The notes under the pieces were generated by a model. That model was not told the DNA's origin and did not search any database. It was given only the letters and a program-made list of their open reading frames with translations. The translations under genes were made by a program, and so were the position numbers. From Brevinema andersonii (lineage in GTDB: Bacteria > Spirochaetota > DYKD01): a stretch of 64,000 nucleotides of DNA. The number at the start of each line of letters is the position of its first letter. Position 1 is the stretch's first letter. Shown here piece by piece: positions 15,849 to 48,914 of the stretch. The stretch is from NCBI GenBank assembly GCA_020722765.1, contig DYKD01000004.1, positions 10,250-74,249 of the forward strand. The letters are read 5' to 3'.

Positions 15849-18287
15849 TTAGCTGGCCGTTTTTTCAACAACCACTTTGAATAGTTGTTTACCAACTTCC
15901 AGTGTGTTGCCACCCCAGTCTTTGCAAGTGCGAGTAGAGTTATCCCACGGAACCATAGCGTTAAAGGTGTAAGGCAGTTTGTGGTGAGTGTCACCGAAGT
16001 TAAACTCAACCGCGCCATCACCTTGCGCTTGCCAGATGTACACATTAATGGTCCAACCATACGGGGTTTGGTGCACGAGCTTCAGCGCAACGTTGCTGAA
16101 CGAGATCTGTCCGCCGAAATCGAGGATTTCGGTGTTGGACGCCGAAGAAGTAATGCCCGCACCCAATGCGTACATCAGGTTGTTGACGTTCCATTCGCAT
16201 TCTGGACTGTTGCATCACCCTTTTATAGGGCGTTCCCACACTCAGTCTCTGCAAGTGAGCCGAAAGTCTCACGAAATCTCGAAAAGATCTTGCCTTTAAT
16301 GTCCTGACGCCGCCTCCCCAAAGGCAACGCAAGAATTAAGTCTGCTTGAGATCTTTGCTGGCCCTCTAAATGGTCGTAAACTGCTTCTAGGATTCTTTTC
16401 ACTTTACGTCCTTTAACATAACGCGCTGGCTGATCCAAGATCCCAAAAACATCTGAAGCCGATTCAAGGCGGAGAACTGGGGTGATATGTGGATTACCTG
16501 CTCCATTAGTCAACCTCCAAATAGAAAGTTTCCCATTCCGCACGACTTCATATAAAGCTTGAGGGTCGATTTTCGTGATACTTGAAACAATCTTCGACTC
16601 TTCTTGAGCGTTGGCATCCAGATGAAAATCATACTTCCACTTATAAGCAAAGCACTTAAAAACGGGTTGTCCCATCCATTCAAGAAAATCACGAATGTAT
16701 TCGTTTGCAATATCAGTTTGAAACATGGAGCCCTTCCACAGCTGCTTTCTTGCTTGAATTCCATGGTTTTTTAATTGCAGAACGATGCGGTCAACATCGT
16801 CTTCACTAAACCCGTGGGTACAAATAGCGCAAGCATTTTTTGAAATCCACCCATCACCACAATATGCCACGTTAGCAACTAAAGGGGTAAGGTTGAAATC
16901 TTTCGGTAAACACTTGTGGCTATTTTCATCGTACCAACGTTTACGAAACTCAGCAAGAACCGACTTGTTGTATGCTTCCAATTGGTAAACTGTTTTGCCT
17001 ACAGAAAACCCGTCTTTCTGAGGAGCGATGCAAGCGTAAGTTTTCCATCCTAAGTCAGTGAAAAACTCACGCACTTCCTCAAAATACTGCTTATGAGTAG
17101 TTGCAAAACGTACTTGAGGAGAAGGCATCTTTGTGACATGAATGTCGCTAAAAATTAGTCCTTCTAAGATCTCAAAAGCACGTTGTTCCATTTTCATCCT
17201 TTTGCGTTCGCCATTAATTAGTGGAAATTAACTTTTCTAACGCTTTCCAGCGTAGCGGGACCGAATGTTCAATCCCGGAGATTTTCAGGGTCGCTGTTTC
17301 CTGTGTCGCAAATTGCGCAATTAAGGTTTTAGGTGATGTAAATTGTTGAAATCATTAACAATTTACTTTGTTACCGTAGGTCTTTTAATCCCCTACTTCT
17401 GCACATTTCTGTGCAGCCCAGACTATATCTTCCCTTTCGGGGGCGGTGCTCGTGTCCGGCTTATTGGTTTCCTGGTCCTCACCGGTTAGTCGTTGAACCT
17501 TCTCTTCTACAGTGTTCAGGATTCGAAGAGCTCGGCTGCTGATTGCCCTCGGCTTCACGTTAGGGTGTTCCAGCAATTCTCCGCCTTTTTTTGACCGAGG
17601 CTGAAATTTGTACTCCACACCTTTGAAAAAGGACTTTCCCAAATAAGGAAGTAAACCCTCTAAAACTTGATACATTTTTTCGTTCATTTTCAACCTCGGG
17701 GGATTCCCAAAATAATTAAAATCCCTGAAATCAAGTGTGTTACCCTAGGAGCTCTTTATCTCCTAGTTCTGTACATTACTGTACAGTTCAGACTATGTCT
17801 TTCCCGTCTCCTCGGGAGGCGGCACTCGTGGGAGTAATTACTGCCATATCTTTCGACTTAGGCTCGACTCCTAGTCGTTGAACCTTCCAGAGAGTTTCCC
17901 CTCTAGCTTGGCTGCACGTTGTCCTTTGGCCGGGATTCATTATCAATTCCAAAGGATGTTCATGCAATTCACCGCCTTCATTCTTCATCACTGCATTAAC
18001 TGGAGAACAGTGATGCGATGCCACGTGTTCCTTGAAACCCCACTTATACGCCATTACTGTTCCTTTCAGTCATTTTGTTTTTGTTGTTGTTTGTTGGCGT
18101 TTAAAAAGTGTAATGATTTCAAGAAGTTATTTTTAACATCCTCCTTAGTTCGAGTGGATGATAGGACTGCTCCGGACTCTACTGCCCCTACGTCGACGGT
18201 GGGCGTTGTGCCAGAAGGTCCGATGTAAAGAACACACGGACCAATCGACATACGGTTTGTGTCGAATTGTGGCAGATTGTAGGGCAT
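15849..18287 (-). CDS. Major tail (tube) protein, spliced; exons 18136-18287, ~17719-17731, ~17272-17333, 15849-16197 (about 191 aa)
   Basis: Joining gives one open frame of 576 nt: ...TRTKEDV/FQG(F or S)/PKTLIAQFATQETATLKISGI/EWNVNNLMYALGAG...; lies between tail terminator and chaperones. Confidence 0.85.
16198..17271 (-). mobile_element. Group I intron 3 of tail tube gene, carries LAGLIDADG ORF
   Basis: P1 CGGGAU/GUCCCG with U.G at the 5' splice site; P10 CAUUCG/CGAAUG; P3 UUUCCAC/GUGGGAA; P7 GACUG/CAGUC; terminal G at 16198. Confidence 0.88.
16223..17197 (-). CDS. Intron-encoded LAGLIDADG homing endonuclease or maturase
   Basis: Motifs ILEGLIFSD and VANVAYCGDG, plus LTP and ICTHGFS typical of the LAGLIDADG_2 type; first motif lacks the DG glycine. 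Confidence 0.8.
   Translation of the reverse strand: MKMEQRAFEILEGLIFSDIHVTKMPSPQVRFATTHKQYFEEVREFFTDLGWKTYACIAPQKDGFSVGKTVYQLEAYNKSVLAEFRKRWYDENSHKCLPKDFNLTPLVANVAYCGDGWISKNACAICTHGFSEDDVDRIVLQLKNHGIQARKQLWKGSMFQTDIANEYIRDFLEWMGQPVFKCFAYKWKYDFHLDANAQEESKIVSSITKIDPQALYEVVRNGKLSIWRLTNGAGNPHITPVLRLESASDVFGILDQPARYVKGRKVKRILEAVYDHLEGQQRSQADLILALPLGRRRQDIKGKIFSRFRETFGSLAETECGNAL
17334..17718 (-). mobile_element. Group I intron 2 of tail tube gene (boundaries +/- 3 nt)
   Basis: P1 GGGAUUU/GAAUCCC; P2 CCGAGGUUGAAA/UUUCAGCCUCGG; P AAUUGCUGGAA; Q AAUCAGCAGCC; R GUUCAACGACUA; S AAGAUAUAGUCUG; P9 CUGCACA-GAAA-UGUGCAG. Confidence 0.85.
17732..18135 (-). mobile_element. Group I intron 1 of tail tube gene
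   Basis: P3 AGGCGG/CCGCCU; P AAUUGCAUGAA; Q CGUGCAGCC; R GUUCAACGACUA; S AAGACAUAGUCUG; P9 CUGUACA-GUAA-UGUACAG; 5' exon ends GAUGU, which can pair with GCAUC at 18017-18021; terminal G at 17732. Confidence 0.85.
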
Positions 18288-18999: not shown

Positions 19000-19343
19000 T
19001 CACTAAACGGGTCCCCTATTTTATCCAACGCTCTCTCGAACACAGGATGTGGTTTAATGTACCTAGTACCACGAATGACATATTTTGCGTGAGGTGCAAC
19101 CTTTTCATCAAAGTATACCTCACATGAAATACCATCTGGGCTGGCTTCGAGTTTGGTCTTTAATGAATTACGCAACCTACCCGTCTTGAAACCCAACACT
19201 TCTTCAGACTGTTTCACAGAAGAAGTGCCGAGCATTCTTTTGACTGTGTCAACATAACGTTTTGCCCATTGATGCCCGCGTGCAGCTAAATTGCGCGCGT
19301 GCACTGTAATTTCGGCTTCGAGTTGCTTTGTGAATTCACTCAT
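18996..19343 (-). CDS. Neck protein, HK97 gp10-like
   Basis: KTGRLRNS...APHAKYVIRGTRYIKPHPVFERA. Confidence 0.8.
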   Translation of the reverse strand: MSEFTKQLEAEITVHARNLAARGHQWAKRYVDTVKRMLGTSSVKQSEEVLGFKTGRLRNSLKTKLEASPDGISCEVYFDEKVAPHAKYVIRGTRYIKPHPVFERALDKIGDPFSE

Positions 19344-21718
19344 CTTTTATTCGTTTTCCTTAATTTCTTTGTAAGCTCAGTTGTTGTTGCAGAGGTTAGA
19401 AAAGGTGGAAACATCAACGTTTCGTCTGGCACCAGCTTACGCAAAATGTTTTTCACCTCATTCACTGGCCTATACAATGGATGTCCTTCTGGGACATCCT
19501 GGGCGCTGCTCTCAAACAGAGCGCGTGAAAACCTCAAATACATTTTTGCGAGCTCGATTTTCGCGAGCGTGAACTTTGAATAAAGATTGACAGCTTTTTC
19601 CAAATGTTCAACCGCCGCTTTAGTGTCGCCCATTTCCGAGTAATGGAGCGCCAAGTTGAAATACGGTTTAGGGTCCCTTGGGTCCCTATGCATAGCTCTT
19701 TTGTTAAGCTTAATGTAGTATTTAAGCTTGTCTTGCAGTCGCTCTGTTAAGAACCCAAAATGGTTGATGACACCTTTCGCGCGAATTATCTGCCGGTTGC
19801 GAATCTTGCCGATAGAGTCCTCGATAGTTTCATGAATCAAACCCGAAAAATAAATGTCGGGACGATTTTGGTATAAACGCATAACTTCTGTAAAAACATC
19901 AGGCCTATTCTTCTGGACGTTGTTGACGTTGAACATTGCCGCGGTTGGATGTGACTCGACCATAAATGTAATTTCAGGAGGTGATGAATACATTTCATCA
20001 ACATCCATCACCCAGATGTAGGCGCTCGTTGATTTTCTTGCGAGCCAGTTACGCATATCAGAATAATCTTCGGTCCATTCACGTTCAAAAATTTTGGCAC
20101 CCCACCGCTTTAACACGTCAACCGCTTCAGAACCAGGAGCAACACGTACTACTATCTCATCAGCGACAGTAGCATGACTTTCTAAGAAGATTTGCACTTT
20201 GTGTGAAGGTTCGTGTTCAGTCATAATATTCAAACTAACTGTGTACTTATCTGAACCCTGCCACTCAGATATAAGAATATTGTTTTGGTTGGTTAAATGT
20301 GAGTAATCTGTTCCTCCCACTAACTCCACAACCGGGTTCGGATCAAGAGCTTCATAGTACCGCCTTTTCTTCTCCCTAAGATCAGGGTCTATATATCCAT
20401 AATGAAGGATGTGAACGTTTACTGGCGCGGAACTAACTGCGGGAATATTTGGGACCCTACTGCAATGCAGGGAGGTCCCAGGCGTTCCCCTAAAATACTT
20501 CATGTTAGGTAGCACTTTAACCATGAAGACCGCTGATGCGGGTGGATAATTCACATGGTATGTATTTGGTGAATTCCACAAATGGATAAATCTACCGACA
20601 AATGCGTAAACTCCAGGAATTGGAGTATTTGCGAGTCGTTGCAAGTATTCCCTAGTGACCTTTTCCTCGAGAAACTCGTCATGATCAAGTACAACCATCC
20701 ACTCCACACCCTGCTTGAATGATATCTCATACAGTTTTGCGCGCTGATCAACTTCGACCTCATCGGACATTAAAGTGTAAGTGAATTTACCTGGGTAATT
20801 TTCTTGCAGCCAACCTTCCATATCCCAACCGCTGTCATCATCAACGATATTGATGATGTCGAAAAGAGAAGCGTGACGCTTCATCCACGCTTCGAGCTGC
20901 TCACGGCTACATTTAACACGAGTATTTCCTGAGATTGAGCGTTCTTTAAACTCACCACAACATTTCTCAACAACTTGCAATCTATTGTAAGTGCCAGAGT
21001 CCATAGAGTCTTGCAAAGATTTCGAGCCGTGATGGAAGACAAACGTGCTTCTGTCGACAAAACATGAGTAACCCATTTGGTTTACTCGTGCACATAAATC
21101 TACGTCCTCATTCCCATTTACAAAGCGTTCATCAAACCCACCAAGCTTCTCCCATATATCTCTACGAATCATGAAACAAAATCCTGAAACAACACCAGCG
21201 TAAATCCACTTTCCGATATTCTCCGCGTGCACACGTTCCGCGAATTCATCAAGTGCATCAAGCGGTATTGGGGAATCTGCTTTTACCAATTGATGAGACA
21301 TAACGTAGTTACTACACGGCGCTACAATCGCAGGCTCAGGCGCGGGTCTATCTGGATCCTTCAACAAGGTTTCATAACAACGAATCAGCTGCTTCAGCCA
21401 CTTCTTAGGCACTCGAGTGTCATTATTGAGCACTACAATAAACTCACCTTTCGCAAACGACGCGCCCATATTAACGTTGGCCGCATAATGTGTATGTCCT
21501 GTGGTGTTATGAATAAACCTAAAATTTGCGTACGTTTGGTCCCAAGCTTCCATCGCAACAACTGTGCCGTCGTCAACGTCGCCTCCAGTACCACACACAA
21601 TAATTTCAAATACAACATCCTCGGTTTTATGTAATGTGTTAAGCAATTCCGTAGTGTATTGCAGTCCTCCATGAACAGGAATGACAATGGAAACTTTGGG
21701 ATTCATATATTCCTCCAA
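19340..21718 (-). CDS. Multi-domain GT2 glycosyltransferase with C-terminal TPR
   Basis: Three GT-A-like units (VSIVIPVH..LNNDT..GGFDE..EDVD; LDHDE..HYGY; WVMDVDE..IHE..HFGF) then TPR-like DPKPYFNLALHY. Confidence 0.85.
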   Translation of the reverse strand: MEEYMNPKVSIVIPVHGGLQYTTELLNTLHKTEDVVFEIIVCGTGGDVDDGTVVAMEAWDQTYANFRFIHNTTGHTHYAANVNMGASFAKGEFIVVLNNDTRVPKKWLKQLIRCYETLLKDPDRPAPEPAIVAPCSNYVMSHQLVKADSPIPLDALDEFAERVHAENIGKWIYAGVVSGFCFMIRRDIWEKLGGFDERFVNGNEDVDLCARVNQMGYSCFVDRSTFVFHHGSKSLQDSMDSGTYNRLQVVEKCCGEFKERSISGNTRVKCSREQLEAWMKRHASLFDIINIVDDDSGWDMEGWLQENYPGKFTYTLMSDEVEVDQRAKLYEISFKQGVEWMVVLDHDEFLEEKVTREYLQRLANTPIPGVYAFVGRFIHLWNSPNTYHVNYPPASAVFMVKVLPNMKYFRGTPGTSLHCSRVPNIPAVSSAPVNVHILHYGYIDPDLREKKRRYYEALDPNPVVELVGGTDYSHLTNQNNILISEWQGSDKYTVSLNIMTEHEPSHKVQIFLESHATVADEIVVRVAPGSEAVDVLKRWGAKIFEREWTEDYSDMRNWLARKSTSAYIWVMDVDEMYSSPPEITFMVESHPTAAMFNVNNVQKNRPDVFTEVMRLYQNRPDIYFSGLIHETIEDSIGKIRNRQIIRAKGVINHFGFLTERLQDKLKYYIKLNKRAMHRDPRDPKPYFNLALHYSEMGDTKAAVEHLEKAVNLYSKFTLAKIELAKMYLRFSRALFESSAQDVPEGHPLYRPVNEVKNILRKLVPDETLMFPPFLTSATTTELTKKLRKTNKR

Positions 21719-22949: not shown

Positions 22950-22988
22950 AAAAAAATAGGGGAAAGCTCAAAAAGAAACTTTCCCCTA
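22950..22988 (-). terminator. Intrinsic terminator after capsid gene
   Basis: 10-bp inverted repeat TAGGGGAAAG/CTTTCCCCTA followed by a T7 run on the minus strand. Confidence 0.8.
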
Positions 22989-23010: not shown

Positions 23011-24399
23011 TTACAACACGGCTAAGTTGTAACCGATAGAGACGACATATTCCGTAGAGGTATTATAAAGCGGGACAAAATCCAGCCGCTGGTGACAAAC
23101 CATGAGATGGTTATCATCCTCGGGGATGTCCTTTACCTTTACAGTGATAGCTCTACGATCACCAAAGACCCACGAAGGTGTGTGGACCAGCATGATGATG
23201 GTCTTATTGGTTGTAGTACCACTATAGACACCCGTTGTATCTAGGTCTTGGCGTACAAACTCACTGACGATAATCGGGATGTTGTCGAACTTCCCGAGTT
23301 CGCCTTTGAGGATAGTCGCGTCAGGGCCGTACTCGTTAAGCTTGAGAACTTCACCGACGCCAAGCATCTGATGATATCCAGCGATCGAGGTAACCCAGGC
23401 AAGATCTTTAGGATCTGTACCATACCTACCCATTTTCGATCTCATGCTACGAAGTAGTCCAGCCCCTTGAGCATAGGTGCCGCCTCCAGTCCAGCTAGCA
23501 AGATTGACTTTCGCGTTTGCGGAACAGCAGTAACGATATCCGTCCCACGCTTTCCGAACGTCGGTAGACCCAGGAACGTCACCAGTGTCAATGGTTCCCG
23601 ATTTTTGACCATTAATAGCAGCGGTTTCTTGCGCATTACCCATCGCGCGAGACATGCTATCTTTCAAGAACGGTAGCACGGGAACGATCGAATCTTCGGT
23701 GATTTCTTCTGAGAAGTAAACCAGGGCGCCAATCTTCTTAGCATCTAACGTCACACCCATTGAAGTCGGCCGTGACGCTGTAGGACGACCCTCAGGTGAA
23801 TTCGATGTAATAGTTTCACCAACAAGGTACGCAGTGATATCTGTACCTCCATGTACAGGCAGTTTGTATTGTGGTGTCGGCATTTCAATCCGACGATGTA
23901 ATGCGGCAACCTTCAGCGCTAGGCGCACTCTATCGATCAAATCAGCAGAAAAGCCTAGCGGAATAAAATCCGCGCCATAGTGAGTGGTTGGTGTCGGCAT
24001 GGTAGGACCAGCACCACCAAAAGAGTCGGCTTTCAAGAGCGGGTGATCCAACAGTCTCTTGTAGATCTTCAAAGACTGAGGAGGCCTATCCAGCATCTGA
24101 GATACTAAATAGACGTCGTCATTCGCCCTTTGCAGGCTTTTAATCGATTCGTCTTCAGTGGAAGTATCGATGACTTTTTGCACCGCTTCCCACCGCTGAT
24201 CAAGCGAATGTGATTTGATCATTTCGTGAGCGTCTTTTTCGTCAAAACGCCCTTTACGTTCTCCAGGAGTCCCTTTTTGAACCTCATTAAGGGCGTCAGA
24301 GATCATTCGTTTTACGGTCTCTTCGTCCTTACTTTTTGACAGGTCGCTGATAAGATTGCCGATGATTTGTTTGGCCTTTTCGAGATTTTCTTTAGCCAT
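23011..24399 (-). CDS. Major capsid protein (HK97 fold)
   Basis: FIP..S..LID, VTLDAKKIGALVYFSEEITEDS, AAINGQ, G.FDNIPIIVSE. Confidence 0.93.
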   Translation of the reverse strand: MAKENLEKAKQIIGNLISDLSKSKDEETVKRMISDALNEVQKGTPGERKGRFDEKDAHEMIKSHSLDQRWEAVQKVIDTSTEDESIKSLQRANDDVYLVSQMLDRPPQSLKIYKRLLDHPLLKADSFGGAGPTMPTPTTHYGADFIPLGFSADLIDRVRLALKVAALHRRIEMPTPQYKLPVHGGTDITAYLVGETITSNSPEGRPTASRPTSMGVTLDAKKIGALVYFSEEITEDSIVPVLPFLKDSMSRAMGNAQETAAINGQKSGTIDTGDVPGSTDVRKAWDGYRYCCSANAKVNLASWTGGGTYAQGAGLLRSMRSKMGRYGTDPKDLAWVTSIAGYHQMLGVGEVLKLNEYGPDATILKGELGKFDNIPIIVSEFVRQDLDTTGVYSGTTTNKTIIMLVHTPSWVFGDRRAITVKVKDIPEDDNHLMVCHQRLDFVPLYNTSTEYVVSIGYNLAVL

Positions 24400-25538
24400 T
24401 ACGCTTCACCTCCAGTAGATTTAGGCGCACTTTCCGCGGCTTTTTCAGCTCCTTGGTGAGAAGCACCAGCGGGAAGGCCAAGTGTTGGCCGAAGAGCTTC
24501 GAAAAATTCAGCCAAGCTTTTAAGTACTTCAGCCTGTTCATCGAATTGTTTCTGTAGCTCATCGAACCGATCGGCAACAAGTTGCTCAGCAACGGACTTC
24601 GTGCTCTCGAGCAGCCTCGCTTCAAGAGCAGGAGCCATATCATCTAAGCGCTTCGTAATCTCATTCAACGCACCTTCCACCGCCTTGAGACGGCTTTTGA
24701 TCCCCTCTAAAACCGGATCATACCCCTCAATGTCCTTATTAGGCGACGGATTAGGATATGGATATTCTTCACCCGCAGCACGGAGGACTTCGGCTTTAAT
24801 GGCGCGACAGATTGCAACTAAGCGCTCGTCAACATCTTGAGGCATATGAGGCATATCCTGGAGGGCCGCAATAAGCTTGTCAACCATAGCTGCAATTGCT
24901 TTTGCTTTTTCCTTATCCATTGTAGATTTATTCCCCCCTTCAATGGTGTTGACGACTTCTGTGTCGCCGTTGCTCATATTTTGCCCTTGAGTTTCTTTCG
25001 AAGTCTCGAGGGCTTTGGATAAATAATAATGCAGCGTTCTTGCATGAGGATTTGCAGGAACCGAGACTAAGGAAATCTCGAAAATCTTAAATCCTTTGAT
25101 GATCGTGATCATTCGATTGAGAGTCTTGTCGAACTGCTCATCATAATCCGTCACCACTCCACGAAAACTAAATTTAGAAATCACACCTTCGGTGATCTTT
25201 TTCCAAATTTCATCTTCATGGCTAGAAATTAAGACTTTCACGAATAAACCCGAGTCTTTAGGATACGCTTCCAGTACTTTACCGATCGGGCGGTCTGCGT
25301 CATGATTATACAGGACGGTAGTGTAATGAAGGAGGTCCTTAGCGGCCCCCTCCAGAGCCTCGCGAGTAATCACTTCGTACTGCGAATCAATGACATCAGC
25401 AACCGCCGCAAATCCGGTTACTATACGTTTAAGCTCGCCTGTCTCATCGAAAGTGTCAACCTGCTTTTCGATGTCAAACAAGGCATCCTGAAACTCGAAG
25501 CCCTCAATTTTGAGAGCTAAATTTCCATCGATCGGCAT
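24399..25538 (-). CDS. HK97-type prohead protease with C-terminal coiled-coil scaffold
   Basis: VLYNHD..PIG, KFSFRG, EISLVSVPANP. Confidence 0.9.
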   Translation of the reverse strand: MPIDGNLALKIEGFEFQDALFDIEKQVDTFDETGELKRIVTGFAAVADVIDSQYEVITREALEGAAKDLLHYTTVLYNHDADRPIGKVLEAYPKDSGLFVKVLISSHEDEIWKKITEGVISKFSFRGVVTDYDEQFDKTLNRMITIIKGFKIFEISLVSVPANPHARTLHYYLSKALETSKETQGQNMSNGDTEVVNTIEGGNKSTMDKEKAKAIAAMVDKLIAALQDMPHMPQDVDERLVAICRAIKAEVLRAAGEEYPYPNPSPNKDIEGYDPVLEGIKSRLKAVEGALNEITKRLDDMAPALEARLLESTKSVAEQLVADRFDELQKQFDEQAEVLKSLAEFFEALRPTLGLPAGASHQGAEKAAESAPKSTGGEA

Positions 25539-25612: not shown

Positions 25613-28258
25613 TCACTCCGCTTCACCTACATTCCCAGTTACTCGCAAAGTCCATATGTTAGTATTCTCGTCCTCTTCAAGTAAGTACAAACCTTTCCAC
25701 TTACTTGTTTTAACCTGAAACTTCTTCAAATGAGGATCATCAATCAACAATAACATGCTGCCTTTTACAACTCTTTCAACAGTAACTGGTATTTGTCGGT
25801 TGGGGTTTAAGATTGACCCAGGAGGTAAATCACCCGTCGTATCCATCAAGTGTTTGTCTTTAATTTTTTGCATGGTTCCAACTACTGACATAGACGTTGG
25901 ATCGTTGTTGAATACAAAAAGGTAGGCGAAGTTATCCATATCGATCCACAAATCGTAAAGCTCAGCACTAGCACCGACCCTAACATGTAGTGGACCACGC
26001 CATACCCTATGATTTAAGACAAACTTACGTTCAACTCCTAATTTCAAGACGGCTTGGTCGTCTTCCTTAGAAGCCCTAGAAACGGGTTTGAATCCCTTAT
26101 CGTAATCGATCGCCACTTTGAATTTCTTAATGGCTTCTACTAAGCTATCACGAACCTTCAATGCAGCCTTAGAATCTTTAACATTCCAATATTGAAATTC
26201 GTGAGGAATTTGGTCACGAACGTACTTAGGCAATGCTGAAATATGGTATGGGGTTATTCTCCCTTTTTGGACTGCGCGTCGTGATAAAATGTAAGGCTCG
26301 TTGTCATTCGGCTTGATCATCAACCACATCGTTGGTGTCCTAATTTCAACCTCTTCAGCGGGAGGCAAAGCAGCGAGTGAAATAGTTTGATCAAAACCAA
26401 ATTCAACACCTTCAGGCAAAATCACTTCACCCAACGTACAAGTAATTTCGTTGCCATCAAGAACGTAATTATTTATTGGATCTTCAACGTCGAACACGCG
26501 TTGTAAGAATTCCGGGATAGAAACAAAACCTTTTTTGAGGTCTGACGTTAGTTGTCTAAAAACGAGGCGTTGAACCTTGTTCCGCCATTTATCACAATGA
26601 ACCCAGTATTCATGGAAGTACCCAGAACGATATCCATACTCAACGGTCCCTTTAGCTGCAATATAAAATACTCCTGGAAATTGTTCTGTTGCACCTACAC
26701 CCCCACGTTCAACCACGCCTTCGAAAGTTAGCCACTCAATTGGTTCAGGCTCTTTTAATTGAACCATAATTGAGGTGGCTTTCTTCAAACCACCGCGCGT
26801 CTGTCTCGCTTTAAATTCCCCAGTCACCGCATTGAACTTCCAGAGACGGTCGTCCTTTGCCCACTTCTCTGCCATCGCTTCAGTAGTGACTGGAGCGTCA
26901 ACGATGCCTGGCATAGGATTGTCTAGAGTGTACCCCAATAAGTACTGATTTTTGACATGTTCTATCCTAAAGTCACAATGAACAGATTTTCCACGCCAGT
27001 GATAATGCATAACAAACTTATGTACTAAATTTTCCTCAGGATATTGCTCCCAAATGTTCGTTTGTTTGACTAATTCAAATGGAATAAAATCATCCAAATC
27101 TTTCATTTGAATTAGTTGTGCGTCTCTGCCTATTTTCATCAAAGTTGTGACAGTATCCGCACTCTCATTAGCATTTGCTATAGTACGATTTTCATACACT
27201 TTGGGTTCATATAATGCGAGTGAAATTTTTCCTGCGTCATCTTTGTGGACGAAAAGGGTGTGAAACTTTACCGTGATAATATCCCCAATTTCCGCAGCGA
27301 CGCCGGTATTAAAAGTCTTGCCGACCTCTAAAAATTGAGTTTTAGAATTCGGCAACACCCTTAATTTACTTTCATCAACATCTTCTAATTCGGAAGGTAA
27401 AACTTCAACCCCAATTTTATATTGCCAAGTTTTCTTTTGTCCTTTTATCAACCGAGAGTCCAAAACGACGCAATGAGCCTCAGCATACTTTTTAAATTTC
27501 ACCATATCTGAGGTGCGACCATCCAACTCAAACTTGTATCCATCCCATCTTTTTATCATAGCCCCCTCAAGATTATCAAACCTAAGGAGGTTGTTTATAA
27601 CTCTACGAACTTGTGTTGATCCAGATACAATAGGTGTGGGTACTAAGTTAAAGCCGGGATGAATGTTGGATAATAACGATTGTTTGATCGGAAATTTTTC
27701 CTCAATCAAGGCCCAACGTTGCTTATACAGTTGCTTGTGAATGTCTTGTCCATCAAACCAAACACAATCATGCAAATTCCAGACATACTCACTATCTTGG
27801 GTGGGACTTTTTGTATGCAGTTCACCAGAAACAACCTCCCTACCTTGATGGACGAGCTTGCCCCCTTGTTTAATCCATTTTTCAACCTCCCCGATTAAAA
27901 TGTAATCAGTTTTTGGGAATGTGGATTCAGCAATTTTGATTAAGTGCGGGAACTTATCGGTTACGTCACTACCATCTTCGGTGAAGACAGTGAAGTTGCC
28001 ATCTTTGTCTCTGTGCAATGAACATGATACGCCATCAAACTTCCCTTGAATAGCGATGAATAAGTCCGAAAGCCTTAAACGTGAAGCCCAATTACGCAAA
28101 TACTGAAATAATTGTTCGAGAGAAAAAACTTCTGCTTCCCTATAAGCGGATATTGAGAGGGTAGTCTTGAGAGGGAAAAAGAAGTGGCCAGGACCTAACA
28201 GTTTGTCTTGTTTTTGCTGTAATTGGGCGTCCCTTAAATTTTGTTTGCTACTCTTCAT
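25613..28258 (-). CDS. ATP-dependent DNA ligase with C-terminal LigD 3'-phosphoesterase-like domain(s)
   Basis: Motif I QGKFDG, LIGEV, LHDCV, EGAMIK, MVKFKK, OB-like GKTFNT; then HYHWRGKSVHCDFRIE...WLTFEG resembling the LigD PE HxDFRLE motif. Confidence 0.8.
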   Translation of the reverse strand: MKSSKQNLRDAQLQQKQDKLLGPGHFFFPLKTTLSISAYREAEVFSLEQLFQYLRNWASRLRLSDLFIAIQGKFDGVSCSLHRDKDGNFTVFTEDGSDVTDKFPHLIKIAESTFPKTDYILIGEVEKWIKQGGKLVHQGREVVSGELHTKSPTQDSEYVWNLHDCVWFDGQDIHKQLYKQRWALIEEKFPIKQSLLSNIHPGFNLVPTPIVSGSTQVRRVINNLLRFDNLEGAMIKRWDGYKFELDGRTSDMVKFKKYAEAHCVVLDSRLIKGQKKTWQYKIGVEVLPSELEDVDESKLRVLPNSKTQFLEVGKTFNTGVAAEIGDIITVKFHTLFVHKDDAGKISLALYEPKVYENRTIANANESADTVTTLMKIGRDAQLIQMKDLDDFIPFELVKQTNIWEQYPEENLVHKFVMHYHWRGKSVHCDFRIEHVKNQYLLGYTLDNPMPGIVDAPVTTEAMAEKWAKDDRLWKFNAVTGEFKARQTRGGLKKATSIMVQLKEPEPIEWLTFEGVVERGGVGATEQFPGVFYIAAKGTVEYGYRSGYFHEYWVHCDKWRNKVQRLVFRQLTSDLKKGFVSIPEFLQRVFDVEDPINNYVLDGNEITCTLGEVILPEGVEFGFDQTISLAALPPAEEVEIRTPTMWLMIKPNDNEPYILSRRAVQKGRITPYHISALPKYVRDQIPHEFQYWNVKDSKAALKVRDSLVEAIKKFKVAIDYDKGFKPVSRASKEDDQAVLKLGVERKFVLNHRVWRGPLHVRVGASAELYDLWIDMDNFAYLFVFNNDPTSMSVVGTMQKIKDKHLMDTTGDLPPGSILNPNRQIPVTVERVVKGSMLLLIDDPHLKKFQVKTSKWKGLYLLEEDENTNIWTLRVTGNVGEAE

Positions 28259-29399
28259 TCATTTCACCCTCATCTAGCTCTTCATCATGCTCATCTAATA
28301 CATCGTCGGGGTCGTGTTGAATAAGATCAGTGTTGAATGACCTAACAAGATCAAGGCTACATACACCGATATAACTTGTAAAGGGAGAGAGACCAGAGTC
28401 TTCGACTTTGGAAAAACGATATCTAACAGAGTCTGGAAATCTCGCAATAAACGCTGAGTAAATTTTCTCTTCTAACTCAACACTCAAACCGGCTCTTAGC
28501 AAAACATCAACATCATTCTTGGTTGCCCCTCGAGTAGCAATTCCCCCAACAAAGTACAAATAAGGCTTAACTAAACATAAATCGTCAAATTGATAATTCA
28601 GTTGCACCGTCCACAATGGGTCGAGCTTTTTAAGCACTAAATCATATGCTACATCCACACCCTCTAACTGTTCCATCGAAACAGGTTTATATTTATTCCA
28701 CTCTTCTCGAGGAAATTGCCGCAAGATTCGAAAATACATAACCTTGATAAGTTGGCGCCCACCAATGTCAGTTAACCAAATGTGACCCCTATTAACGTCA
28801 ATTAGCACTGCCTGCTCAACAACCACAACTTCCTTGGGAATATAAGAAACGATATCCTCAACAAAAATCCATGGACCCATCTCTTCACCTGAAGATGCGA
28901 AGCCTGGTGATCGCATAGCACGACCCAAAGGTCTATCAAGGGAATCCCAATTCTGGGGCACCTCTAAGCCCCTTCGCATCAGTTCCTTTTCAACTAAATG
29001 ATGCCAGTTCCACAACTGTTCTTGCTGTGTGATAGTTACGTCTTTAAGATGTATCACTTCCCACACAGAATGTAGTTGGTTGTGCAACTTCACCAATTCA
29101 GACTTACTTAAATCACTTAACCTAGATGGAATAATTTTGGCGAAACGTTCAACGAACTGTTCGATTTCAGGGTAGGAAACTCTATCAAGCTCATCATGAA
29201 CCCTAAACCTAATACCGCGACGGACCATCTCAGTAGCAATGATTTTATGGCGAATGATGAGATTCTTAAGTTTGGGGTTGGAGACGTCGTTTTTCCTAAA
29301 ATATGGGGCGGCTAGTTGGTGAGCTCGAAAATGTAAGTTTAAAAGTTCACTATCCGGAACTTTTCTAATAGAAGCAGGGGTAATTTGGTTGAATCTCAT
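28248..29399 (-). CDS. Pol-beta superfamily nucleotidyltransferase with N-terminal helical repeats
   Basis: YFVGGIATRGATKNDVDVLLR (hG[G/S]...DxD); repeats ELLNLH..H..EMVRRG and ELVKLH..H..ELMRRG. Confidence 0.7.
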   Translation of the reverse strand: MRFNQITPASIRKVPDSELLNLHFRAHQLAAPYFRKNDVSNPKLKNLIIRHKIIATEMVRRGIRFRVHDELDRVSYPEIEQFVERFAKIIPSRLSDLSKSELVKLHNQLHSVWEVIHLKDVTITQQEQLWNWHHLVEKELMRRGLEVPQNWDSLDRPLGRAMRSPGFASSGEEMGPWIFVEDIVSYIPKEVVVVEQAVLIDVNRGHIWLTDIGGRQLIKVMYFRILRQFPREEWNKYKPVSMEQLEGVDVAYDLVLKKLDPLWTVQLNYQFDDLCLVKPYLYFVGGIATRGATKNDVDVLLRAGLSVELEEKIYSAFIARFPDSVRYRFSKVEDSGLSPFTSYIGVCSLDLVRSFNTDLIQHDPDDVLDEHDEELDEGEMNEE

Positions 29400-29412: not shown

Positions 29413-30732
29413 CTATTCACCTTCCTCCGCTTCACCTGAAACGCCCGTTCCTTCTGGGACATTACCAGGTCTCCAATCAATTGATGAAGGAGCTCTATTA
29501 GGCGAAGGTTCTTGTCCTGACTCAGATGCTGGCTTCGAGCCAGGAAACACATCACCGTTTTCTACCGGAGGCAATCCAAGAAGTGCGCGCGCTTCATTGA
29601 GCGTCATTAGTTTTGCTTCGGACAATCTTGAAACAATTCTTGAATTAGCTGAAAGTTTGATTACGTTCACTGGAGCAGTGGAAGTATCAAAGGCGCCCAT
29701 AACTAACCGATCATTACGCTTAATTACTTGTGAGTCAATAATCGCGGAAACCTTTCTTAACTTAGGAGCTATGGTGCTATCATAAAAGATAGCCTGTGCA
29801 ACACGGGCCGTAGAATAATTGGCACTATCAGGAACTCCAGCTAAAATTGGCGGAACTCCCATACCAACAAATAGTGCATCTCGCACCGCTTTTCTCATTT
29901 CTGGGAATGACGCCTCTTGTGGTGTAGCAGCGATCTGCTTGAAATCCATTCCGTCTTCTAAAATAGCAACATGAAATGCATTCTTGCGCCCTCTGTGCCG
30001 TTCCTCCCACTTCGAAATTAAACGATTATACACTGCGTCACTTAAAATTCTAGGAGTCGTAATAACACCACCAGGTGTAGCATCATTTGCGAAAAATCTC
30101 GCATTGTATTCATTCGCAGCCCAATCTAATTGCAGTTGGGTCCAAATTGGCTGTAAGCAACCTAAACCCCAATACTCGTTAGTTGGGTTTGCGTAACGAA
30201 AATGTACAATTTCTTTAGGTTCGTAACGTATGGTTTGGTTCGAAACACGGTACTCATATGCCTCAACATATCGAGTTGGATGTGGAATAATTCTCATCCC
30301 AGTAGGGTCGAGGAAATAAATTTCTGAGATATATCCCGATTCATTGTACACAAGCTCCCAGAACGCGTTACCAATCAACTCTAAAACTAAAAATGTATTC
30401 TCCAACAAATCAGTGAATGTCATATGTGGGTTAGGTTGAGTCACGAGACGCCACATATAGTGGTCCTCAGATACTATATGTCGTCCTTTTCGGGTATACA
30501 ACACAAATGGGACCGATGCTGCGGTATTCGCGATTAAGTAAACTGCAGCGTATACCCACGGGTTCGATGTGTATTGCAATAAAAGGGAATTAAAGTCAAT
30601 GGGTGGATTGTAGTACTCGTAAAATAAATCGCGAGCCGCTCTACCAGCGGGAGGTTGTGCGGAACCGCTTTGTACAACTATCTTTTTGTTAACGGGTTGG
30701 AGGGCTTTACAAACGTCAATTAAAAGTGCCAT
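29413..30732 (-). CDS. Portal protein (HK97 family)
   Basis: WVYAAV..IA, QPNPHMT, GNAFW, EIVHFR, FFANDATPGG, GVPP, MTLNEAR..LGLPP. Confidence 0.95.
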   Translation of the reverse strand: MALLIDVCKALQPVNKKIVVQSGSAQPPAGRAARDLFYEYYNPPIDFNSLLLQYTSNPWVYAAVYLIANTAASVPFVLYTRKGRHIVSEDHYMWRLVTQPNPHMTFTDLLENTFLVLELIGNAFWELVYNESGYISEIYFLDPTGMRIIPHPTRYVEAYEYRVSNQTIRYEPKEIVHFRYANPTNEYWGLGCLQPIWTQLQLDWAANEYNARFFANDATPGGVITTPRILSDAVYNRLISKWEERHRGRKNAFHVAILEDGMDFKQIAATPQEASFPEMRKAVRDALFVGMGVPPILAGVPDSANYSTARVAQAIFYDSTIAPKLRKVSAIIDSQVIKRNDRLVMGAFDTSTAPVNVIKLSANSRIVSRLSEAKLMTLNEARALLGLPPVENGDVFPGSKPASESGQEPSPNRAPSSIDWRPGNVPEGTGVSGEAEEGE

Positions 30733-30808: not shown

Positions 30809-33322
30809 TTAGCGCAACGAAACAAATCTGATTTGGGGCTCTCTAGCAAGACCTTTAACCGCAATATAAATCGCGTCAATTAAATCAGCGGTAGTTAAGG
30901 GGAAGCTGACCATTTCATTAATGAAATCGTTATGTAAATCACGACGTATTAACAGTTTGTGACACCGAATAAGGTTTGACAAGAATTCAACGCGAGATTC
31001 CTTTGAACCACCAGTCCTGACTTTCACAATCGGTAAAATCACATCTAATTCCTCTAAATATTCATGAAAATATGTTTGTAGCGCAAATGCTTCGATTTGA
31101 ATAGCTATCGCGTGCGGAAATTTCTGGTAAAACGAAAGGACGATGTCGCGTTGATCGGCAAGCCTCAGATTTTTTCGTACCAAATATTCTAAAACGTACG
31201 CCCTTTGTGTGCCCCTTTCTTGGCCAACCGCAGCGATGGCAAAAGCGCTGTGTCTGTCAGTTTTTTCTAAGCCCGGAGCACACAAGTCAACCCCAATTAA
31301 AACATCTAAACGCTCATAGGCTACTTCATGAGGCTCATAATATGAAAGATCAAAATCCTCAATTGTAATGTAATCCCCTCCGCCTGTAAAAGTCACGTCA
31401 TTTTGGTATTGGAGACGAAAAACGTCTGGGCCGTACATAGCTTCGATCTGCTGCAACTTCTCGAGAGGAAACATCTCTTCCCAAAATGATGTGCCATCTG
31501 GATTAATTGCGGGCTGGATAAGCGATCTCCAGCCCCCTTGCGACTCTTCGAGCTCTAGCAACTTGTGGTAAAGATCGTCACGATGATACGATGTGCCTAT
31601 TACATGAGCAGCAGTTTCATGAGAAATGCTCAACGTAGGCATAGCAACAAACCTAAACCAATCCCAAATTTTTCGACGTAGGGAGGGAGAATCACGCGAC
31701 TCAACATCAACTACATCATCAAAAATAATAACGTCGAAGTGCTTACCAGCAAGAGTTGATCCAACGCCTAAAGCGGTGAACGTCGCCTCCGCCATCGACT
31801 GGCTTCTCATCAAAGTAACTTCCACGTTGTTCCATTTCATTGCTTTGTCTGGCTGGATTAAATCCGGCCACACCGCACGAAGACGTTGGTTAGTTTCGAG
31901 AATGTTTTTAATTTTACTGACGAAGCTGCTAGACAAAAGGGATGATTTTGAAATGATACCTATACGAATGTTGGGGTTACGCAACGCACGCCAAATCGAG
32001 TAGTAATGACCACACACTGTTGAATTATGACTTATCGCACCGTTAGCTAGAAAGGTACCATCCATGGTAGATAGATCAACGGTTAGACCCTTCGTCTTGC
32101 GTACCGACTTCACATACTGTAGGAAATGAGGGAAGCGGAATAAAAAAGTAAAGTTATACAGTTTGGGGACAATGTGAATGTTTTCTTTGACGAATCTCTC
32201 CGCCAATAACGGTTTGTCCTCGTAATTTTTTTGACAGTCTTTTTCGAGGCGAATTTTAATAATAGGCAAAACAAATGGGTCCCTCTGAATTTCTGCCGCT
32301 AACAGTCTCGCGAGCTCAGCAATCTGGCTCTCAGTATAATCACACCGATCAGTATGTCCACGGAGAAAGTTGTGAAAGCTTCTGCGAAGTTTAGCAGATT
32401 TCTGCAGTAGTTTATATCCAATCCTCGTCAAGGGAAATCCCAAGTTTAAAAACCATTTCTGCACTTCGATCGCTTGTTGCTCGGTAAATTTAACATACTG
32501 ATTATACCACCAAAAAGTGTGAGCAATTGTTCTTGTTGCAGATAGTGAGCACTCCCTAAGGCATACAGGTATTAGAGGGCTGTCGAAATTCCTGGATTTT
32601 AAGAAATCCAGGAACTTAGGCGGGATTGATTTCCACTCTTTGTGATTGAAAAATCTCCAAAGAGGGATCGCCATTTTCTGACGTGCTCTCGGTTGATGCC
32701 AGATCTTCTCCCAACCCTCTGGAAAGTTGAGCCAAAAGAATGCTAAAGCAGAATACCACAATGCGGGAGGAACGTTGAATGGATTATCAGAGCTGTCAAC
32801 AAATTTCCGCCAATCACACCTAAACACGATTCTGTCATGTTCAGTAAGAAATCGGGCCTCACGAAACTTAAGATGAAACCCATTCCAAATCAGCCACCTA
32901 TGTTCTGGGGTGCATCTTAAGACGTAGCCATCTTCGGTTTCGATTTCGAGTATATCATCAAGCCCATTAGAGTAAAGTTGTGTAGCCCTAGTCTCTCCCA
33001 GGCAAGACTCTAAGATGAAATCAGTTGAGGTCGTAAAAGGAAGGGTTGTTTCACAAGGAAGGGCTTCTTTGATATACTTTAGTCCCTGCGGTGTAGGAAT
33101 TAAAGTATCGTCAGCGACACACTTCCAAGACCCCCGAGGACCTAAAATTAAGGTCCTCGGGTGAGTCATTTGGAATTCGATCCACTGATTGTGGAATGGT
33201 TGCAGGACTGTATCTAGGAAAGCGGCACAAAAGAAATCAAACCTTTCTTCACCAGCTATGCGAAGAAGCTTTATTTCCTCCTTTTTTATGGGTGCAAGCT
33301 TAAACTTATTCAATGAAGTCAT
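30809..33322 (-). CDS. terL: Terminase large subunit with intein
   Basis: Walker A GPRGSWK/S split by intein; GKHFDVIIFDD; IGT; LQYQN; nuclease GVDL and DLIDA. Confidence 0.92.
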   Translation of the reverse strand: MTSLNKFKLAPIKKEEIKLLRIAGEERFDFFCAAFLDTVLQPFHNQWIEFQMTHPRTLILGPRGSWKCVADDTLIPTPQGLKYIKEALPCETTLPFTTSTDFILESCLGETRATQLYSNGLDDILEIETEDGYVLRCTPEHRWLIWNGFHLKFREARFLTEHDRIVFRCDWRKFVDSSDNPFNVPPALWYSALAFFWLNFPEGWEKIWHQPRARQKMAIPLWRFFNHKEWKSIPPKFLDFLKSRNFDSPLIPVCLRECSLSATRTIAHTFWWYNQYVKFTEQQAIEVQKWFLNLGFPLTRIGYKLLQKSAKLRRSFHNFLRGHTDRCDYTESQIAELARLLAAEIQRDPFVLPIIKIRLEKDCQKNYEDKPLLAERFVKENIHIVPKLYNFTFLFRFPHFLQYVKSVRKTKGLTVDLSTMDGTFLANGAISHNSTVCGHYYSIWRALRNPNIRIGIISKSSLLSSSFVSKIKNILETNQRLRAVWPDLIQPDKAMKWNNVEVTLMRSQSMAEATFTALGVGSTLAGKHFDVIIFDDVVDVESRDSPSLRRKIWDWFRFVAMPTLSISHETAAHVIGTSYHRDDLYHKLLELEESQGGWRSLIQPAINPDGTSFWEEMFPLEKLQQIEAMYGPDVFRLQYQNDVTFTGGGDYITIEDFDLSYYEPHEVAYERLDVLIGVDLCAPGLEKTDRHSAFAIAAVGQERGTQRAYVLEYLVRKNLRLADQRDIVLSFYQKFPHAIAIQIEAFALQTYFHEYLEELDVILPIVKVRTGGSKESRVEFLSNLIRCHKLLIRRDLHNDFINEMVSFPLTTADLIDAIYIAVKGLAREPQIRFVSLR
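32024..33121 (-). mobile_element. Intein in TerL Walker A (366 aa)
   Basis: Begins CVADDTLI; block B LRCTPEHRW; ends TVDLS..FLANGAISHN followed by Ser. Confidence 0.9.
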
Positions 33323-36691: not shown

Positions 36692-37153
36692 TTACCAGTC
36701 ATGCTGTTCATAAGCTAACTGTTTTCTTTGTGCAATTGCGAGATTAACAAGTCCATCACGTTTAAACCATAAGCTAGTCGTTATAGACGCGATTAAATCC
36801 GTTATATAAATTAAGCGTGATAGCTTATCATTTAATTTAGCATATTCTTCGTTGTCTTGCAACGCTATTTCCACAATTCTATTAGAAACATATGAAGTAT
36901 TTTTCGCGGCCTTGACAAGTGTAGGGCCTGCAACCCTTCTCATTTCACGTTCGATGCCGCGTTTGTGAAACTCAAGATCAGCTTTTTGCGCGAGCCAATA
37001 TTGAGCAATCGCGGGCAACGTCTCCAAATCTGAACTGGTCTCGACGATCGATGCGTCCTTCTTGAGTGCTTCCTTTAAGTCCTGCGCCTTCTCAAGAAAC
37101 TCAACATCGCTCAATTCAAGACTGCCAACTAATTCATGGACGATGTTTTTCAT
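36692..37153 (-). CDS. Probable recombination mediator (UvsY-like)
   Basis: Helical protein ending KRDGLVNLA..R; next to SSB and recA; start at MKNIV overlaps the queC end. Confidence 0.5.
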   Translation of the reverse strand: MKNIVHELVGSLELSDVEFLEKAQDLKEALKKDASIVETSSDLETLPAIAQYWLAQKADLEFHKRGIEREMRRVAGPTLVKAAKNTSYVSNRIVEIALQDNEEYAKLNDKLSRLIYITDLIASITTSLWFKRDGLVNLAIAQRKQLAYEQHDW

Positions 37154-38903: not shown

Positions 38904-38913
38904 AAAGACCTCC

Positions 38914-39552
38914 TCAAGCGGTAACTTCCGATTTCGTTTCTGTACCACTGAAACAACAATCACCACCGTTGCGATATGCTGTGACACACTCACTCATCGC
39001 AGCGAAACCATTTCTGACTCCTTCCCCTGAATGATAAAATGAGTGAGTATGTGCCCAAGGAATCCCATACAACCGTATAGCGTCTGTAATTGCTTCCTTA
39101 CTTGAAGACAAGAACAGAAACTGCCAGTTGTACTTTGTTTCTTGGTGACTTATCATATCGAAAATGTGTGACCGATGAAATTCAACGCTCGAGTTCTCCT
39201 GTCCGTCAGTAATGATGGCAAAAATGACTCGACTAGGCCGACACCGTTCAGGCATTTCTGCAAGGCGATGGCCGACCGAAATAATAGTCCGACCTATTGC
39301 ATCGAGTAATGCAGTCGAGCCTCGTGGTTGATAAGACCCAACAGTTAGAAGCGGAACCACTTCAATAGGCTTAAAATCATAAAGCATTTCAAACTCGTGG
39401 TCGAACTGTACAAAGGTCACGGTCGCTTTTCCGCGAATGATCTTTTGCTCATTAATGAAGTTATTGAAACCTTTAACCGCATCACTCTTGACCGGCCACA
39501 TCGACCCTGAACGATCGAGTACTACAACTAAATGAGTGTAATTTGGATCCAT
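38914..39552 (-). CDS. vWA domain protein
   Basis: MIDAS LDRSGSM, RGSTALLDA, ITDGQENSS. Confidence 0.9.
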   Translation of the reverse strand: MDPNYTHLVVVLDRSGSMWPVKSDAVKGFNNFINEQKIIRGKATVTFVQFDHEFEMLYDFKPIEVVPLLTVGSYQPRGSTALLDAIGRTIISVGHRLAEMPERCRPSRVIFAIITDGQENSSVEFHRSHIFDMISHQETKYNWQFLFLSSSKEAITDAIRLYGIPWAHTHSFYHSGEGVRNGFAAMSECVTAYRNGGDCCFSGTETKSEVTA

Positions 39553-48911: not shown

Positions 48912-48914
48912 TAA

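Follow-up and report, generated by a model that had tools for sequence, protein, structure and literature searches.

A DNA ligase-phosphoesterase protein and its nucleotidyltransferase-like partner in the head gene modules of uncultured tailed viruses

Bacterial LigD unites a polymerase, a 3'-phosphoesterase (PE) and an ATP-dependent ligase, and has Ku as its partner. African swine fever virus (ASFV) carries a repair set (Pol X, AP endonuclease and ligase) in which a minimal viral family X polymerase and an ATP-dependent ligase serve short-patch genome repair, and these enzymes are present in the virus particles. For phage proteins that travel in the head and are injected together with the DNA, the known roles are anti-restriction, transcription and host takeover; to our knowledge, the healing and sealing of DNA ends is not among them. 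Here, a pair of overlapping genes lying between the portal and prohead protease genes of a phage-like contig was analysed (DYKD01000004.1 of assembly GCA_020722765.1, Brevinema andersonii), within a stretch of 64,000 nucleotides at contig positions 10,250 to 74,249 that is called the window below. The first gene encodes a protein of 383 residues with a nucleotidyltransferase-like domain (P0002), and the second a protein of 881 residues with an ATP-dependent DNA ligase and two PE domains (P0001); the prohead protease is referred to as P0005. The pair shares with the ASFV set the combination of a minimal family X-type domain and an ATP-dependent ligase. It differs in that the ASFV set belongs to a eukaryotic virus, is encoded by separate genes, lacks a PE domain and has no link to capsid-assembly genes.

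The presence of a ligase in viral head modules is already known. An ATP-dependent ligase in the structural module of magroviruses was noted in 2017 (Philosof et al., PMC5434244); in the part of that report used here, it was described as a distinct family, also present in uncharacterised bacteria, no function was given, and a second ligase was recorded elsewhere in the genomes. As in the window, the ligase gene of magroviruses and of the uncultured archaeal virus ANMV-1 (KP703175) lies among portal, protease and capsid genes. In ANMV-1 the portal gene is followed directly by a gene for an 866-residue 'ATP-dependent DNA ligase', the N-terminus of which matched the nucleotidyltransferase part of P0002 and the remainder P0001, with 84% of P0001 covered. 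The magrovirus ligases are presumed to belong to the same family as P0001. The reports, in the portions considered (PMC5434244), name the ligase only and mention no PE domains, nucleotidyltransferase or protease fusions. The polyvalent or MuF-linked effectors (Iyer et al. 2017, PMC5512222; 2022, PMC9503650) are also similar as far as the relevant passages of these papers describe them, being enzymes of several domains that lie next to, or are fused with, portal, MuF or head protease proteins, with partner domains of comparable kind (Dam methylase, 2H and a Nudix-like logic), and being thought to be packaged and injected. However, DNA ligase and LigD-type PE were not among the domains in the relevant passages of the 2017 survey (Iyer et al., PMC5512222), the main text of which has the word 'ligase' three times, one passage concerning RNA ligases, and 'LigD' not at all. 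In the text portion of PMC7824862, XkdF was mentioned only as a head peptidase. In the main texts covered by the literature search, nothing was found on LigD or a phosphoesterase with a phage head, on the ANMV-1 ligase, or on a phage heterodimeric DNA ligase. Within this main-text literature, the PE domains, the pol-beta-like domain, the one- or two-gene architecture, the fusions to the protease and the wide spread of the family seem not to have been described.

The head locus and its ATP-dependent DNA ligase

The first-pass annotation of the window placed two overlapping genes between portal and prohead protease, and the open reading frames (ORFs) were found exactly at those positions. P0002 (28248-29399, minus strand) and P0001 (25613-28258, minus strand) share 11 nucleotides at their junction, as read directly from the sequence. 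The portal gene is separated from P0002 by 13 nucleotides and P0001 from the protease gene by 74 nucleotides. The features of the block are as follows, in coding order.

29413..30732, minus strand: portal protein, upstream of P0002 (PF04860, E 2.5e-66)
28965..29399, minus strand: two helical repeats resembling pyrimidine-dimer glycosylase (T4 EndoV/Pyr_excise, PF03013), P0002 residues 1-145
28602..28862, minus strand: beta-rich middle domain, P0002 residues 180-266 (AlphaFold2 (AF2) predicted local distance difference test score (pLDDT) ~88-93)
28335..28577, minus strand: candidate minimal pol-beta/family X-type nucleotidyltransferase-like domain, P0002 residues 275-355 (G285-G286, D296-x-D298; profile)
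27074..28258, minus strand: ATP-dependent DNA ligase, adenylation and OB domains, P0001 residues 1-395 (PF01068, PHROG 114, fold)
26543..27046, minus strand: PE1, LigD-type 3'-phosphoesterase domain with an insert of ~40 residues, P0001 residues 405-572 (intact H420/H427/D429/R431; profiles)
26039..26542, minus strand: beta-hairpin insert, 'WLMIKPND' strand and conserved helical linker, P0001 residues 573-740 (conservation)
25628..26032, minus strand: PE2, second PE fold, catalytically degenerate, P0001 residues 743-877 (VIA, hhalign)
24399..25538, minus strand: prohead protease P0005 with a coiled, scaffold-like C-terminal half (PF04586 2e-12; PF14550 2.4e-7; PHROG 80 5.1e-27)
23011..24399, minus strand: major capsid protein, after the protease (PF05065, E 2.7e-10)
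22957..22988, minus strand: terminator-like hairpin (13-pair stem, then a T run) closing the block of terminase, portal, P0002, P0001, protease and capsid genes

Inside the terminase-to-capsid block, no terminator-like site comparable to this hairpin was found on the coding strand, and promoter-like sites were not more frequent than in shuffled sequences (22 versus 19.7, standard deviation 4.4). The possibility that P0002 and P0001 are joined by a programmed frameshift was rejected, the junction containing the 11-nucleotide overlap but no slippery run.

A full set of ATP-ligase motifs in P0001 had been proposed in the first-pass annotation, and this was borne out. PF01068 matched residues 69-256 with 53.6 bits against a cut-off of 26.2 (E 3e-14), and PHROG 114 matched at 1.2e-11. 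Motif I is K73-F-D75-G76, and residues K73, D75, G76, E124, E231, G232, K236 and K254, which cover motifs I, III, IV and V and align with the motifs of LIG1, were at least 90% conserved in sets of 31 and 44 aligned relatives; among relatives, 28/31 and 35/36 matched PF01068 themselves. Human LIG1 superposed on residues 6-384 of an AF2 model built from 44 sequences (mean pLDDT 85.1) with a Z score of 24.3 and a root-mean-square deviation (rmsd) of 3.3 over 317 residues (VIA). The Z scores of the other superpositions by VIA were 22.2 for T4 DNA ligase, 19.1 for the ASFV ligase (AsfvLIG), 17.9 for the ligase domain of M. tuberculosis LigD and 8-11 for RNA ligases, and those of LIG1, T4 ligase and M. 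tuberculosis LigD were confined to model residues 1-393. A Foldseek search with the model also returned human LIG1 (E 2.9e-17), and the single sequence gave weak ligase matches among the PDB sequences (E 0.014). The assignment of the N-terminal part of P0001 as a true ATP-dependent DNA ligase holds strongly.

Phosphoesterase and nucleotidyltransferase-like domains

The LigD PE-like domain with an HCDFRIE motif, also proposed from the first reading, was recovered with the motif at P0001 residues 427-433. The pattern H420-x6-H427-x-D429-x-R431 was invariant in 36/36 family PE1 segments, and we take these residues to be the LigD metal ligands and essential arginine (H42, H48, D50 and R52 in P. 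aeruginosa numbering). The Pfam family LigD_N (PF13298) had no match in P0001 at E<=0.1 and none in the genome scan, and it matched only 2/31 and 5/36 relatives. When a profile of 36 diverse PE1 segments (residues 405-570) was compared with the PDB, the top two matches were the archaeal PE entries 3P4H (0.019) and 3P43 (0.046), both marginal. Profile-profile comparison by hhalign with four cellular LigD_N domains from other genomes, in which the E-values are those of single comparisons, gave 93.9% for PE1 (E 1.5e-7) and 96.0% for PE2 (E 4.4e-9), as against 0.2% for an unrelated control alignment. With two canonical phage-family PE domains added, these values were 97.9% for PE1 and 99.3% for PE2, and the two domains compared with each other gave 92%. 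At the positions aligned to the phosphate-contact residues His84 and Tyr88 of LigD, PE1 has E505 and W509; W509 was invariant and the E505 position was mostly Glu among family PE1 segments. Because of these two replacements, the substrate of PE1 may differ from that of LigD. Judged from its sequence, PE1 is probably active, though no textbook PE.

A possible degenerate second copy near the C-terminus had been suspected, and PE2 fits this description. The archaeal LigD-family PE 3P4H superposed on model residues 743-874 with Z 14.5 and rmsd 2.0 over 114/118 residues, and 3N9B, the P. aeruginosa LigD PE domain, with Z 12.7 (VIA). The HxDxR motif of PE2 was lost in P0001, which has ELYDLWI instead, and was retained in 8/40 family PE2 segments. 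Both PE assignments hold by profile-profile comparison, and that of PE2 also by the modelled fold. In the region between the two domains (residues 573-740), Y656, R661, P677, P685 and W691 were invariant in relatives; the WLMIK strand may, in our reading of the sequence, be the last strand of PE1. In a language-model atlas search, residues 575-740 reached only 0.77-0.83, and scores of this size are too low to be of use. The distant relative P0038 contained three PE-type domains and no ligase, and only its third domain matched LigD_N (1.4e-16).

For P0002, a pol-beta-type GG...DVD motif had been reported. The motif is present as hhVGG-x9-DVDVL (G285-G286...D296-V-D298), while the family assignment proved to be modest. 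G285, G286, D296 and D298 were invariant in 26 close homologues, and the G and DxD positions were the only invariant columns across 34 diverse family segments. When the profile of these 34 segments was compared with the PDB sequences, all of the 60 best matches (60/60) were family X polymerases, with E-values of 0.011-0.14 for pol beta, ~0.2 for terminal deoxynucleotidyltransferase and ~0.35 for pol lambda, and the alignment placed the DxD of P0002 on the catalytic aspartates of pol beta. Language-model neighbours carried NTP_transf_2/Polbeta labels with scores of 0.86-0.90, which by the calibration of the tool are a lead only. The motif loop had a low pLDDT in the AF2 model, which counts against a nucleotidyltransferase. 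On these sequence comparisons a pol-beta-type fold of the C-terminal domain is likely; the domain is too small for a full polymerase.

The N-terminal repeats of P0002 matched PF03013 narrowly, with 23.2 bits against a cut-off of 23 (9.2e-5) and over profile positions 51-77 of 81 only. The same family was matched at E<=0.1 by 23/26 P0002 family members (best 6.3e-7), and the N-terminus formed helical hairpins in the AF2 model. Against the PDB sequences, the P0002 family profile found no glycosylase and a single match at E 0.26, nothing meaningful, and P0002 alone found no match. Fold searches with the P0002 model (Foldseek, VIA) gave generic helical-hairpin matches only (best Z 8.1), with the lists filled by the N-terminus. 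Residues 1-145 are probably a non-catalytic DNA-binding remnant or module and no enzyme. The middle domain (180-266) had no family or fold match in Pfam and the fold searches.

These domains allow the analogy with LigD, which had been raised at the outset, to be judged. It stands for the logic: the module joins an ATP-dependent ligase, a PE-fold phosphoesterase with the metal-site residues kept and a nucleotidyltransferase-like domain, as in an order of healing, adding and sealing. It fails for the particulars. The genome, 92% complete, had no match to Ku (PF02735), and no primase-polymerase (AEP) domain was found in P0001 or P0002 by Pfam scan, so that the module is LigD-like in logic but no LigD. 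The candidate polymerase part is a minimal pol-beta/family X-like domain, whereas that of LigD is a primase-polymerase; there are two PE domains, one of them degenerate; PE1 differs at the two phosphate-contact positions; the ligase fold is nearer to LIG1 and T4 ligase than to the LigD ligase domain; and the genes belong to the head module of a virus, in many cases with a fusion to the prohead protease.

Relatives, fusions and neighbouring genes

A word-indexed search found 33 other sequence clusters for P0001 and 26 for P0002, and the longest contigs of many P0002 clusters were equal in size to those of P0001 clusters (e.g., 175249, 105788 and 73990). In a profile search of 1.84 billion representatives, 4,799 matches were obtained at E<=1e-3 and 1,053 at E<=1e-30; since the profile includes the ligase domain, the weaker matches may be ordinary ligases. 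The 150 best matches were all below 1e-129, and many of them were 1,000-2,300 residues long. A scan of IMG/VR yielded 58 loci, 51 of them unique. The module also occurred in bins labelled Dehalococcoidia, Thermotoga, Lentisphaera, Planctomycetota, Aenigmatarchaeota and Archaeoglobales (8 loci). A comparison of P0001 and P0002 with 50,697 phage records gave ANMV-1 as the sole match. When two distant family members served as queries, 259 and 203 records were matched, and among the 30 matches listed for each of them all but ANMV-1 fell on the methylase insert. As judged by these searches, the module is distributed widely among uncultured viruses of bacteria and archaea.

The architecture of the module was surveyed in the 51 unique loci, on which ORFs were called and iterated profiles seeded from the window proteins were run. 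The PE pair was present in 51/51 unique loci and in all 58 loci, and the ligase domain was present in 44 and absent in seven. The P0002-like part was fused to the ligase/PE protein in 36 loci, encoded by a separate adjacent gene in 11 and not found in four, and the ligase/PE region was split over two or three ORFs in 14/51. Because of the seven loci without a ligase, sealing is not a universal core of the family, and the PE pair and the nucleotidyltransferase form the conserved core. The synteny survey proposed with the first-pass annotation showed conserved linkage and covalent fusion: the prohead protease was a C-terminal fusion in 12 of the unique loci, a separate downstream gene in 23 and undetected by the protease profile in 16. 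No second protease ORF was detected in the flanking sequence fetched for the 12 fusion loci, and the His and Ser equivalent to P0005 H79 and S124 were kept in 12/12 fusions.

Immediate neighbours were counted by Pfam after duplicates had been dropped, upstream for 44 of 45 ORFs (without L045, a duplicate of L043) and downstream for 47 of 49 (without L045 and L055, a duplicate of L054). The upstream neighbour was a Phage_portal protein in 18 cases, Portal_Mu in nine, an SPP1 portal in one and a P22 portal in one, which makes a portal of four families in 29/44, and Phage_Mu_F in seven, giving 36/44 together. The two genes had been proposed to occupy the slot of MuF-type minor head genes, but the module is no simple replacement of MuF, which lay directly upstream in these seven loci; neither P0001 nor P0002 matched MuF (PF04233) in the Pfam scan. 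Two of the 44 upstream neighbours carried an ATLF (lethal-factor-type metallopeptidase) label and one a PI3/PI4-kinase label. Downstream, the neighbours were S78 in 13 cases, XkdF-type in 11 (with overlap in at least one case) and capsid families in ~8.

Extra fused domains were counted in 36 of 146 new representatives, taken as every fourth by rank. A Dam-type methylase was found in nine, an XkdF protease in seven, a 2H phosphoesterase in three and a uracil-DNA glycosylase (UDG) in two, and inteins also occurred. In two loci (L019:3072-6854 and L039:2396-7648) the Dam-type N6-adenine methylase lay between PE1 and PE2 in the same polypeptide. This Dam methylase, 2H and UDG-type repertoire resembles that of phage proteins thought to be packaged and injected, as described in the relevant part of PMC9503650.

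The window lies within a contig of 90,044 bp with a GC content of 43.5%, compared with 41.7% for the genome as a whole, a bacterial bin of 3.6 Mb in 371 contigs. The minus strand carries all long ORFs, and every one of 30 ORFs scanned across the 90-kb contig was phage-like or unassigned, with no host flank seen. The phage genes include those for a terminase with an intein-like segment, portal, prohead protease, capsid, tape-measure and tail proteins and an endolysin, and further for PolA fused to a UDG-family domain, a DnaB-like helicase, RecA, SbcCD-like proteins and an intein-bearing QueC. No NAD-dependent DNA ligase was found in the bin (92% complete), one contig of which (C215) carries a 350-residue ATP-dependent ligase ORF. 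The missing NAD-dependent ligase prompted consideration of an archaeal host, which was rejected because the bacterial small signal recognition particle RNA scored above threshold and the archaeal match below it.

Several other genes were noticed. The large terminase (30809-33322, minus strand, 837 residues) has an insertion of ~370 residues; its PHROG terminase match covered residues 434-829 only, and residues 119-433 gave a sub-threshold intein-splicing match. QueC (37134-38993, minus strand, 6e-60) is interrupted by an intein (3.1e-12). A phage QueC hints that the viral DNA is modified with 7-deazaguanine, and such a modification could influence the kind of DNA damage or host attack met by head-module enzymes. 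An ORF of 4,831 residues (250-14745, minus strand) contains a PF10145 minor-tail/tape-measure domain (2208-2366) and an SLT transglycosylase domain, and would be an exceptionally long tape-measure protein. The family A DNA polymerase (57071-59488, minus strand) has an N-terminal domain of the uracil-DNA-glycosylase superfamily (1.4e-18). A TROVE (Ro60-like) domain protein (40128-41576, minus strand, 8.7e-18) is phage-encoded, and the regions 47181-49865 and 19340-21718 (minus strand) encode a protein with a sulfotransferase domain as well as two glycosyltransferases, of which one has TPR repeats. In the tail and head region lies a gene for a free-standing homing endonuclease of the LAGLIDADG type (16223-17197, minus strand), and such a gene was also recorded in magrovirus structural modules in the portion of PMC5434244 used here. 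Beyond the window but inside the phage contig, a TnpB/IS605 OrfB-type gene (L080:6100-7266) showed a Cas12f1-like TNB domain (2.7e-25).

Where and on what the module may act

Our preferred reading, to which we would give about an even chance, is that the two proteins form a capsid-associated unit that acts on the ends and nicks of viral DNA by healing and sealing. Packaging into virions, the substrate, the timing and pre-adenylation are what we infer here. The first-pass annotation had proposed a virion-packaged end-healing system that could circularise the genome or mend nuclease cuts at entry; the domain calls largely bear this out and the linkage and protease fusions agree with it, while packaging, action at entry and circularisation are possibilities. 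P0002 and P0001 would together correspond to a single polyprotein conserved in the head modules of tailed viruses, here split into two, in which P0002 supplies the DNA-binding EndoV-like repeats and the minimal pol-beta-type nucleotidyltransferase, and P0001 the ATP-dependent ligase, the metal-dependent LigD-type PE1 and the degenerate PE2. The pair would be expressed together with the portal, protease and capsid genes, and most likely be incorporated into the procapsid; in relatives it is the N-terminal extension of the prohead protease itself. Blocked 3' ends of the viral DNA would be cleaned, a nucleotide possibly added, and the ends then sealed, either during genome packaging or right after ejection into the next host, and a ligase that had received its AMP in the producer cell might need no ATP to seal a single nick.

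Entry into the procapsid is the simplest account because the module stays beside four unrelated portal families, because it is repeatedly the N-terminal extension of what is apparently the only head protease, and because its fused partners are typical of packaged and injected phage proteins. The same packaging argument has been used by others for MuF, portal and protease fusions, in the part of PMC9503650 that deals with them. The preferred reading is further supported by the block without a strong terminator that runs from the terminase to the hairpin after the capsid gene in the window, and by the separate second ligase seen in one related record and, in the passages used here, reported for magroviruses (PMC5434244).

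Several observations weigh against it. In the window phage, P0001 and P0002 are not fused to the protease, and P0001 is the sole PF01068 match of the 90-kb contig. Among four related large viral records, a second ATP-dependent ligase was found in one and an NAD-dependent ligase in none; the three without another ligase include the only one rated complete (100%). The ligase itself is missing in 7/51 unique loci. The nucleotidyltransferase-like domain had no Pfam match and a best pol beta value that is marginal, and it comprises ~80-90 residues without fingers or thumb. D334 was invariant in its close homologues, but no acidic column was invariant in the wider family. PE1 carries Glu and Trp at the two LigD phosphate-contact positions. 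No cultured phage with the core module was present among the 50,697 records; being absent from the cultured phages of this collection, the family escaped proteomics.

The best-surviving alternative, clearly less probable in our view yet a real contender, is an ordinary phage DNA ligase for replication, recombination and repair, equipped with accessory end-cleaning domains, encoded in a late operon and free in the cytoplasm; such a role might also exist in addition to the preferred one. The single PF01068 match of the contig, with no NAD-dependent ligase found, and the related records without a second ligase are consistent with this, and the phage would be expected to need a ligase because it encodes its own PolA, DnaB-like helicase, RecA and SbcCD. 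Against it stand the conserved place beside four different portal families and the covalent fusion to the sole detectable prohead protease in 12/51 loci. Further points against it are that one related record and, in the parts considered, the magroviruses (PMC5434244) retain a separate ligase too, and that seven loci retain the PE and nucleotidyltransferase parts with no ligase.

A second alternative is that the module acts in the producer cell only, at the portal or in the filling capsid, where it would repair nicks and damaged ends of the DNA being packaged, with no delivery to the next host. This draws on the same synteny and protease fusions as the preferred reading, and the fragments that prohead proteases produce usually exit the capsid before packaging, as is general for HK97-type heads. 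The fused Dam methylase, UDG and 2H domains, on the other hand, resemble cargo thought to act at entry in the relevant part of PMC9503650, and we consider restriction to the producer cell rather improbable. An RNA heal-and-seal system, for example for the repair of tRNAs cut by host anticodon nucleases, is very unlikely. Weak PF09414 RNA_ligase matches in 3/31 and 2/36 family members, the 2H phosphoesterase fused in 3/36 and the action of LigD PE domains also on 3' ribonucleotides would fit it; but the fold gave Z 17-24 with DNA ligases, to which it is much nearer than to RNA ligases, the OB domain is of DNA-ligase type, and no polynucleotide kinase domain was seen in the Pfam scans of the window proteins and the 36 representatives. 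A structural or scaffolding head protein made of inactivated enzyme folds, to which the loss of the PE2 catalytic motif in 32/40 family segments and EndoV-like repeats that seem, from their sequence, to be without the catalytic Glu might point, is equally unlikely, given that the ligase motifs, the PE1 H-x6-HxDxR (36/36) and the nucleotidyltransferase G/DxD (34/34) are kept in distant relatives.

Beyond the preferred capsid-associated unit, a bolder and more tentative possibility, which we hold doubtful but worth stating, is that thousands of uncultured tailed viruses of bacteria and archaea may carry, within the capsid, a self-contained DNA repair kit that is delivered with the genome. The kit would consist of a lesion- or end-binding module, a minimal family X-like nucleotidyltransferase, a 3'-phosphoesterase and a pre-adenylated ligase, loaded via the prohead protease. 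On entry it would mend nicks, blocked ends and breaks caused by the environment or by host nucleases before viral gene expression, and would be a phage equivalent of end joining by LigD and of the particle-borne repair enzymes of ASFV.

The compact variants of ligase, phosphoesterase and nucleotidyltransferase, with altered PE active-site residues, merit biochemical study. If the module is packaged, these viruses would carry their own first aid for the genome, and host nucleases would face a counter-defence of a new class. Packaging would also account for the structural-module ligase of abundant marine archaeal viruses, for which an explanation has been wanting since 2017.

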